From Klebsiella phage RothD: a stretch of 46,356 nt of DNA. A program made the translations under genes and the position numbers. Where the stretch lies: the sequence record PP934564.1; one strand, 5' to 3'. Under the pieces are notes generated by a model. The model was not told the DNA's origin and ran no database searches. It worked only from the letters and a program-made list of their open reading frames with translations. Shown in pieces: positions 24,735 through 25,329 of this stretch (position 1 is its first letter; every line of letters begins with the position of its first letter).

Positions 24735-24754
24735 TACTGTATATAAAAACAGTG
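24735..24754 (+). promoter_or_regulatory. LexA (SOS) box TACTGTATATAAAAACAGTG within a promoter (TTGATC -35-like upstream)
   Basis: Perfect CTGT-N8-ACAG with AT-rich spacer; identical over 19/20 positions to the E. coli umuDC operator as I recall it; lies 19 nt upstream of ATG 24773. Confidence 0.6.
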
Positions 24755-24772
24755 TTTATCGGAGGGCAGATC

Positions 24773-25012
24773 ATGCTTCGTCAGTCAGACATCAACCAGG
24801 CTTTCCGCGAGTCGGTATTGCGCAACGCCAAAGGCTACCAGTACCTTCACACCCGCGACTTCGTTACTGCGCTTCGCCGGCGCGGCATCCACTTATCCGA
24901 GGTGGAGGCGAACGCCTGGATCGCACGCGAGCAGACGTATTTCGTCGATAAGACGCCGGACCATAGCGAAAACAGGTTGTGGATGATGGCCAACATGGGG
25001 AGGGTTCTGTAA
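24773..25012 (+). CDS. small SOS-regulated protein of unknown function
   Basis: 79-aa ORF (MLRQSDINQAFRESV...) with SD GGAGGG; stop overlaps start of the UmuD'-like gene (TAATGG). Confidence 0.4.
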   Translation: MLRQSDINQAFRESVLRNAKGYQYLHTRDFVTALRRRGIHLSEVEANAWIAREQTYFVDKTPDHSENRLWMMANMGRVL

Positions 25013-25329
25013 TGGGCTTTCCATCACCCGCGACGGACTACGTCGAGCAGCGACTGTCCGTTAACTCGATCTGCAATGTCGGCCCAAACACGCTAGTTTT
25101 CGAGCGATCTGGTGGTTACGTTGTACTGGATATCTCCCTGAAGCCAAAGCAGGGTAGCCAGCTACTTATACAGCACGGCGGCGGGACGGAACTTGCCTCG
25201 TTGAGAGGGAGGGCGCTGATTACTGAAGACGGCGAAGCGATCGAGGGAGAATACCTGGACGATGTTACTGTCATCGGGGTCGTGATGTTTACTATCTGCG
25301 ATGTTCGTTCCGATAATTCTATTATTTAA
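25012..25329 (+). CDS. UmuD'-like protein (HumD-like; S24 peptidase fold lacking the N-terminal cleavable arm and apparently lacking the catalytic Ser)
   Basis: 105-aa; MGFPSPATDYVEQRLSVN aligns with UmuD 24-41 CGFPSPAADYVEQRIDLN, so the protein starts exactly at the UmuD' cleavage point; C-terminal DVTVIGVVM aligns with UmuD DVFGVVIHV; the SGDSM active-site motif is replaced by SGGYV. Confidence 0.6.
   Translation: MGFPSPATDYVEQRLSVNSICNVGPNTLVFERSGGYVVLDISLKPKQGSQLLIQHGGGTELASLRGRALITEDGEAIEGEYLDDVTVIGVVMFTICDVRSDNSII

Follow-up and report, generated by a model that had tools for sequence, protein, structure and literature searches.

We studied a two-gene cassette in the temperate Klebsiella phage RothD. 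The window, i.e., the whole stretch of DNA that was analysed (46,356 nucleotides (nt), sequence record PP934564.1), carries behind a predicted LexA (SOS) box two overlapping open reading frames (ORFs), here called A and B, which encode proteins of 79 and 105 amino acids (aa). Protein B is a relative of UmuD that starts where UmuD is cleaved and has lost the protease centre. Our favoured reading, to which we give a probability of roughly 45% and which draws on analogy with the HumD protein of phage P1, is that B acts as a pre-activated, cleavage-independent surrogate of UmuD′ (the processed form of UmuD) for the UmuC of the host. The cassette is real and widespread, and it is a variant of the known HumD-type system whose likeliest role is an expected one.

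The cassette promoter

A preliminary description of this DNA, made from its letters alone, had proposed a umuDC-type LexA box upstream of ORF A. In the sequence of E. coli K-12 MG1655, the umuDC operator reads TACTGTATATAAAAACAGTA. The RothD box TACTGTATATAAAAACAGTG is identical to it at 19/20 positions, such that the claim stands. That the box lies within a promoter is likewise correct, while its distance to ORF A is 18 nt before the ATG at 24773 and not the 19 nt given before. The strict pattern CTGT-N8-ACAG is found in two copies within the window, where 0.43 would be expected; besides the box, it occurs at 7213, with a GC-rich sequence inside a coding region. Of the 27 matches to CTG-N10-CAG in the window, none but the box at 24735-24754 has a spacer made up of A and T alone.

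The resemblance to umuDC covers the surrounding elements as well. The E. coli umuDC promoter and the cassette promoter have a common layout, i.e., TTGATC, 17 nt, TACTGTATATAAAAACAGT(A/G) and GGCAGAT before the ATG. Since the -35 hexamer, the spacing, the box and GGCAGAT all match K-12, we assign a umuDC-type promoter with the box over its -10 element, and the whole promoter looks homologous to that of umuDC at the sequence level. A generic promoter scan made no call at the cassette because its -10 element TACTGT fits TATAAT at 3/6 positions only. The genuine umuDC promoter likewise has TACTGT with 3/6 consensus positions.

Next, we compared the upstream regions of related loci, restricted to the 46 loci with enough upstream sequence. 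The box is present 13-25 nt before the start codon of A in 44 of these, including loci where A is only 37-50% identical, and a TTGA-type -35 hexamer (TTGATC in most) is found at the matching position in 35/42 box-bearing loci. That is, the box fits the gammaproteobacterial consensus and is conserved despite diverged flanks, which makes the cassette a predicted member of the SOS (LexA) regulon.

The two ORFs overlap by their stop and start codons (TAATG), in agreement with the coupling of the 79-aa and the 105-aa ORF claimed in the preliminary description. Both show ratios of nonsynonymous to synonymous substitution rates (dN/dS) that indicate purifying selection (0.12-0.25 for A, 0.13-0.16 for B). 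Given these low values and a full-length match of each protein to a PHROG family, A and B are both real genes.

Protein B is a shortened relative of UmuD′ and HumD

BLASTP of B against E. coli UmuD yields E=1e-10, where the aligned part is restricted to B 2-44 and UmuD 25-67. B begins Met-Gly, and its Gly2 is opposite UmuD Gly25, i.e., the first residue of UmuD′. The assertion that B starts exactly at the RecA-mediated cleavage point is thus confirmed by the alignments. A cleavable Ala/Cys-Gly site after an N-terminal domain or arm is absent from B, i.e., there is nothing to cleave. A PDB-wide phmmer search with B reports 8GMT and 1UMU (E=4.6e-5).

The identity between B and UmuD is distributed unevenly. 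The arm (UmuD 25-41) agrees at 13/17 positions and is retained as GFPSPA.DY.E..L, while the core (42-125) agrees at 9/67 positions and the C-terminal strand at 4/10. In UmuD′, the C-terminal β-strand forms the dimer interface. With regard to RecA contacts, the arm residues F26 and P29 touch RecA in the RecA-UmuD structure, while the core residues Y52, L54, F94, D91 and E93, described as RecA L2 pocket and acidic patch residues, dock in the groove of the RecA filament (PMC9926225; for the published L54, the K-12 sequence as numbered here has Val). The equivalents of F26 and P29 are conserved in B; the groove residues are not.

The domain models give a graded picture. Peptidase_S24 (PF00717) does not match B even at E<=1, while its threshold of 23.3 bits is passed by P1 HumD (36.1 bits) and by a long form of B (27.7 bits). 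The NCBIfam HumD model NF051876 matches B with 44.5 bits (E=1.4e-11; B 1-101 to profile positions 1-121 of 129), which is below the family cut-off of 120 bits. In the AlphaFold2 model of B, the β-core (residues 23-98) reaches a predicted local distance difference test (pLDDT) score of about 80-90 and the N-terminal arm is disordered. The top PDB matches of this model in Foldseek are UmuD′, the C-terminal domain of M. tuberculosis LexA and the C-terminal domain of lambda CI (probability 1.0, template-modelling score 0.5-0.6), with modest E-values of 5e-3 and above. The UmuD-type fold assumed in the preliminary description thus holds, as all top matches are UmuD′, LexA or CI C-terminal domains, and B is predicted to have the S24/UmuD′ β-fold.

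We then investigated the catalytic residues. The preliminary description had reported SGGYV in place of the active-site motif SGDSM. Pairwise alignments indeed put SGGYV opposite SGDSM, with Val37 facing Ser60, and GGYV is nearly invariant among 114 close B homologues. A substitution is nevertheless not what happened according to a MAFFT alignment that includes HumD intermediates and was built from UmuD, P1 HumD, HK140_028, phiKO2 gp23, two long forms taken from genomes and seven short forms: here, a 12-residue segment with Ser60 is deleted in the short forms, including the B of the window. The Lys97 column holds Ala62 in B; the next residue is Ser, where most close homologues have Thr. In short-B proteins that are more distant, a Lys is found in the next column (FAKL), and the long HumD-type forms keep Lys97. 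At the Ser60 column, P1 HumD keeps Ser (as well as the Lys), and HK140 and phiKO2 have Thr instead of Ser. The earlier statement that B appears to be catalytically dead is therefore well founded, given that the Ser60 segment is gone and the Lys97 column is Ala. An alternative hhalign register (B 50-70 to UmuD 42-62 via QLLIQH) was rejected, and that of the MAFFT alignment, which contains the HumD intermediates, was preferred; neither register provides B with a conserved Ser/Lys dyad.

The short forms of B also have in common with HumD an acidic C-terminal tail (…DD.PV) that is absent from UmuD. This anatomy, i.e., the intermediates and the common DD.PV tail, identifies B as a reduced member of the HumD lineage. 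The alignments, the fold and the HumD-model match jointly uphold the view of B as a HumD-like relative of UmuD′ that is made in pre-processed form and is dead as a protease. Since a protein that is born 'cleaved' requires no apparatus for RecA*-stimulated self-cleavage, the parts lost from B are unneeded. The loss of the catalytic residues is thus expected from relaxed selection and does not necessarily signal a new function.

Some variants of B were also observed. A Phytobacter locus encodes a 93-aa B without the GFPSPA arm. Salmonella phage BTP1 carries a truncated, unannotated HumD-like remnant between gtrA and int (3001-3294 of the extracted locus, L053) that corresponds to residues 1-98 and is 71% identical to the long form. 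In the window, the frame of B is open for 11 codons before its ATG (24979-25011), overlapping the end of A. A programmed frameshift that leads to an A-B fusion was discarded, as no slippery heptamer was seen, and for the same reason the A-B fused ORFs found elsewhere (P0292, L036) are probably frameshift mutations or sequencing errors.

Protein A is a conserved small protein

Protein A is predicted to have a winged-helix-like core followed by a conserved C-terminal tail. Searches of Pfam with the single sequence or with 23 diverse family members (DinI family included) gave no match, nor did NCBIfam, PADLOC or the PDB sequences, and no similarity to LexA was detected. As stated in the preliminary description, the 79-aa partner is uncharacterised, i.e., the search of these four resources returned no relative of known function. 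Among 1.84 billion representative proteins, a profile search detected no more than 94 relatives of A, nearly all of about 79 aa. Among 39 phage records with A, nearly all annotate it as 'hypothetical', one mislabels it 'DNA polymerase V', and a tested function is never given; in the literature searched, we found no publication that deals with the A family or with the short form of B. For most relatives, the combination of a basic A with an acidic B holds as it does in RothD.

A DinI/ImpC-like identity of A, which would make the cassette an analogue of impCAB, was rejected because neither A nor the 23 relatives match DinI or any other Pfam family. It is also disfavoured by phage HK140, where dinI is a separate, divergent gene. 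With regard to origin, A came in later and separated humD from the promoter, since the boxes of P1, N15 and phiKO2 directly precede humD without A.

In some relatives (Raoultella L004, 4001-4315; P0125; phage vB_EcoS-733R5, H98), the 3′ end of A continues in-frame as the C-terminal part of a DNA invertase of the Hin/Pin type (…AEMERELIVERTRAGL…), and no B is present. This fusion suggests that A recombined at its 3′ end with a tail-fibre invertase module.

Distribution and conserved context

DNA of the cassette is present in 19 phage records, most of which are from Klebsiella. Of 5,426 complete E. coli genomes, 179 (about 3%) contain it. Within a large protein collection clustered at 90% identity, B accounts for more than 800 clusters and A for more than 400, most of which are Klebsiella proteins annotated as 'hypothetical'. 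A scan for related loci, using one genome per species, returned 45 loci from genera that include Raoultella, Klebsiella, Leclercia, Kosakonia, Lelliottia, Silvania, Enterobacter, Citrobacter, Phytobacter, Erwinia and Rahnella.

The layout of the module is well preserved. In 34 of the 43 loci with intact A, B is intact as well and starts 1 nt ahead of the stop of A, while the rest mostly have a truncated B. The same layout is even found for a member whose A is 37% identical and which adjoins the host gene lepA. In Enterobacter hormaechei, Citrobacter murliniae and phage HK140, the same A gene is followed by a HumD-type protein of 123-129 aa, and the long form from Enterobacter is 68% identical to P1 HumD.

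On its upstream side, the module adjoins tail-fibre genes, gtrA/B, acyltransferase genes or dinI; downstream we find the attachment site (att) and integrase gene (int) or host genes. A site behind the tail-fibre genes that adjoins att/int or the prophage end is seen in HK140, phiKO2, Erwinia Midgardsormr38, Klebsiella ST16-OXA48phi5.2 and most of the roughly 45 loci. The preliminary description had regarded the position inside the receptor-binding locus as unusual. This does not hold, because the tail-fibre/att end is the usual moron site in these phages and most loci. The cassette has the marks of an autonomous moron in its usual site, and lying between two fibre genes does not by itself set it apart.

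As stated in the preliminary description, no umuC homologue is encoded: tblastn with UmuC found none in the window (best E=4.2), nor any within ±4 kb of 43 related loci. The gene dinI was not found in the window; at related loci it is an occasional divergent neighbour. In HK140, dinI is divergent from the A/HumD-like genes with a single LexA box in the intergenic region of about 85 bp (L051, 2676-2762), and in phiKO2, one annotated LexA site and an adjoining second box-like sequence are found next to divergent dinI (L052, 2423-2501). As the divergent genes flank the box region in both phages, one region probably controls dinI and the A/HumD-like genes. A Rahnella locus (L046, about 4240-4400) has A alone, followed by an apparent terminator stem-loop and a second LexA box (TTACTGTGTTTATATACAGTAA).

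Phage genome and surroundings of the cassette

The window represents a complete temperate phage genome of lambdoid style (46 kb), the left 24 kb of which are 93.6% identical to Klebsiella phage vB_Kpn_Chronis across 75% of the length. Respective features are listed in Table 1.

Table 1. Features of the cassette and of the surrounding RothD genome (window coordinates).
Feature	Position	Strand	Remarks
-35 hexamer TTGATC	24712-24717	+	17-nt spacing to TACTGT; same hexamer and spacing as K-12 umuDC
Predicted LexA (SOS) box	24735-24754	+	TACTGTATATAAAAACAGTG; 20 bp; overlaps the -10 element and the likely transcription start
Shine-Dalgarno sequence GGAGGG of ORF A	24761-24766	+	Read from the sequence; 6 nt from its end to the ATG
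ORF A	24773-25012	+	79 aa; basic, isoelectric point (pI) 9.8; phrog_3893, unknown function (full-length PHROG match)
ORF B	25012-25329	+	105 aa; acidic, pI 4.4; phrog_3469, 'UmuD-like' (full length)
Terminase and head genes	left end of window
Tail and baseplate genes	up to ~20 kb
Receptor-binding genes	20.7-26.4 kb
BNR/rhamnosidase-like late gene, upstream of the cassette	23379-24677	+	432 aa; Pfam BNR_4, E=2.9e-19
Tail-fibre gene, downstream of B	25341-26387	+	348 aa; glycine-rich C-terminal domain
Integrase	26573-27832	-	Excisionase-like gene next
CI/Cro immunity region	33.8-34.9 kb		Replication and lysis genes beyond
CI-type repressor	33840-34535	-	HTH_3 and Peptidase_S24; GDSM and downstream Lys

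The cassette differs from its surroundings in composition, with a G+C content of 0.56-0.57 versus 0.42-0.50 in the flanks. Nucleotide similarity to other phages extends from the -35 hexamer (about 35-55 nt past the stop of the 432-aa gene) to near the stop of B. The 348-aa fibre gene begins 11 nt past B and no terminator was called in between, such that the SOS promoter could possibly transcribe this gene as well.

With regard to the neighbouring genes, the N-terminal 139 aa of the 348-aa fibre are about 50% identical to a 640-aa fibre (20776-22698), and the two look like alternative receptor-binding proteins on one common anchor. The 432-aa protein encoded between the fibre genes, which is also matched weakly by an NCBIfam model for alpha-L-rhamnosidase, may be a glycan-degrading (depolymerase-type) tail protein.

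The CI repressor of RothD matches Peptidase_S24 (PF00717) with 54.4 bits. Since HTH_3 and Peptidase_S24 are intact with GDSM and Lys in place, its sequence leads us to expect self-cleavage without further aid. The CI linker reads …EFACGDG…; a Cys-Gly cleavage site there would resemble the Cys24-Gly25 site of UmuD and not the usual Ala-Gly.

Comparison with known systems

Among known systems, P1 HumD comes closest to the cassette, and in a wider sense so do the dinI/umuD-like SOS modules found in N15-like and lambdoid phages. Like B, HumD is a UmuD′ homologue that starts with MGFPSPA, i.e., without the N-terminal 24 residues of UmuD; it has a LexA box just upstream, no linked umuC, and the C-terminal DD.PV tail. 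Unlike HumD, B is 24 residues shorter, lacks the segment of the Ser nucleophile and has Ala at the Lys97 column. Furthermore, P1 humD stands alone and divergent from lxr, while in RothD the additional gene A separates the HumD-like gene from the promoter. Compared to UmuD′ itself, B has the S24 fold and 13/17 arm residues in common but no Ser/Lys dyad, no conservation of the RecA-groove contact residues and a core of about 13% identity.

The modules phiKO2 gp22/gp23 and HK140_026-028 occupy the same niche right after the tail-fibre genes and before att/int or partition genes, are under the same LexA-box control, and in HK140 include the same A gene before the HumD-like gene. In contrast, the window has no dinI and encodes the short B instead of the full-length HumD type. 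The umuDC operon differs from the cassette by umuC and by a cleavable N-terminus of its product; in umuDC/impCAB-type operons for DNA polymerase V (Pol V), unlike in the cassette, a Y-family polymerase gene follows the umuD-like gene.

Two further comparisons concern function. The YolD family is a proposed non-catalytic β-barrel accessory subunit of a Y-family polymerase, i.e., an analogue of UmuD in Gram-positives (PMC6511836). While YolD is an evolutionarily distinct family and encoded beside its polymerase gene, the proposed case suggests that a protease centre may be dispensable for an accessory role (PMC6511836). Tum of phage 186, AntC of N15 and the dinI-gfoA-irsA operon of the Gifsy prophages are, like the cassette, small-gene prophage operons with an SOS box outside the immunity region (PMC3121763). 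The Gifsy operon is, however, located near replication genes, and searches of Pfam with A and B gave no sign of a sequence relationship to these operons. An identity with this type of antirepressor operon was rejected, as it differs in genes and location (PMC3121763).

Proposed function and alternatives

The functions suggested in the preliminary description, i.e., recruitment of host UmuC or modulation of RecA*/Pol V, are plausible. The reading of B as a surrogate of UmuD′ implies the following course of events. In a lysogen, host LexA on the box over the -10 element of the umuDC-type promoter would silence the cassette. Upon DNA damage, LexA would be cleaved and A and B would be made together through translational coupling. 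B would come already 'cleaved', such that neither RecA* processing nor a protease centre of its own would be needed. By analogy with P1 HumD, it would dimerise and bind host UmuC, forming a Pol V-like translesion complex at SOS onset that bypasses the slow RecA*-dependent processing of UmuD. Damaged DNA of both prophage and host could thus be replicated during induction, with A as a partner or modulator of B. Anatomy, homology, conservation and selection are shown by the present data; LexA binding, the partnering with UmuC and the role of A are what we infer within this scheme.

In its favour are the umuDC-type promoter with its conserved box, the homology of B to UmuD and HumD, the loss of just the parts that serve RecA*-stimulated self-cleavage, the proposed YolD precedent, the selection on both linked genes and the 68% identity of the long forms behind the same A gene to P1 HumD, which the P1 sequence record annotates as functionally complementing UmuD′. 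Several observations weigh against it. The core of B is only about 13% identical to UmuD and B falls below both the Pfam S24 and the HumD thresholds, such that UmuC binding may have been lost. The HumD proteins of P1, N15 and phiKO2 work without A, and the presence of A here may signal a changed function. Finally, since umuC is never linked to the cassette, the function would be wholly dependent on the host.

Doubtful, but deserving most attention among the alternatives, is a role of B as decoy or inhibitor. Here, B would form dead heterodimers with host UmuD or UmuD′, or occupy RecA* via its arm, which resembles the cleavage site. This would damp Pol V mutagenesis or the cleavage of LexA, CI or UmuD during induction, while A would assist or target B. 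Heterodimers of UmuD and UmuD′ are inactive. The C-terminal strand of B is moderately kept. Its best-conserved part is the very arm that holds F26 and P29, which contact RecA (PMC9926225), while all catalytic parts are gone. As UmuD cleavage is intermolecular (PMC9926225), a UmuD·B heterodimer would furthermore be unable to process UmuD. Phage-encoded blockers of RecA-mediated cleavage exist, as exemplified by 434 Hex (PMC3564112). On the other hand, B has not conserved the residues for docking in the RecA groove, P1 HumD as its nearest characterised relative promotes mutagenesis according to the P1 record, and the B heterodimers are hypothetical. A broader formulation, i.e., that A and B form an SOS-triggered regulator or decoy of the network of RecA* and S24 proteins that no longer serves translesion synthesis, we regard as unlikely.

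We consider it rather improbable that the cassette responds to SOS by regulating the lysis-lysogeny decision like Tum, AntC or GfoA/GftA (Gifsy), where A and/or B would inactivate a CI-type repressor, either RothD's own or that of a co-resident prophage. A LexA-controlled operon that is not part of the immunity region, as known from Gifsy, 186 and N15 (PMC3121763), would fit, and so would dinI adjoining the cassette in some relatives, as it does in the Gifsy operon. A is small and winged-helix-like, and B has the S24 fold of the CI C-terminal domain and might pair with the S24 domain of a repressor. However, the phages with these antirepressors have non-cleavable repressors (PMC3121763), while RothD has a standard S24 CI for which self-cleavage is expected anyway. 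The module also travels independently among phage types and resides at prophage ends next to gtr, acyltransferase and host genes, and the ancestry of B is HumD and not a repressor. Neither A nor B has a Pfam hit (DinI included) and A shows no similarity to LexA; A was not directly compared with Tum, AntC or the GfoA/Gifsy antirepressors. Since such antirepressors are small and diverse, a missing similarity is weak evidence in any case.

The least probable alternative is a function unrelated to UmuC, RecA or CI, e.g., an SOS-triggered defence, exclusion or toxin-like module that reuses the UmuD′ scaffold: a typical moron site by O-antigen-modifying gtr and acyltransferase genes, a wholly uncharacterised A and a strongly diverged B would agree with it, while the conserved UmuD-specific arm and the unbroken gradation of HumD-to-B forms that follow the same A gene speak against it, and membership in a defence system was rejected as PADLOC matched neither A nor B.

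Implications

Phage-encoded UmuD′ surrogates let a prophage join the error-prone repair of its host once SOS fires. The cassette studied here is very common in Klebsiella and found in many other Enterobacteriaceae, where it is annotated as 'hypothetical' throughout, and A constitutes a conserved family of small proteins without known function. The series from HumD via the variants with Thr for Ser to the short B provides a natural example of a self-cleaving protease that loses its catalytic machinery once it is encoded 'pre-cleaved'. If the RecA*/S24 network were the target, the cleavage of LexA, UmuD or CI would be tuned, setting the induction threshold of RothD's own or of rival prophages. 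If B still activates UmuC, prophages with the cassette would raise damage-induced mutagenesis in hosts of clinical importance, also under fluoroquinolones; should B block functions of UmuD or RecA* instead, the effect on mutagenesis would be the opposite.

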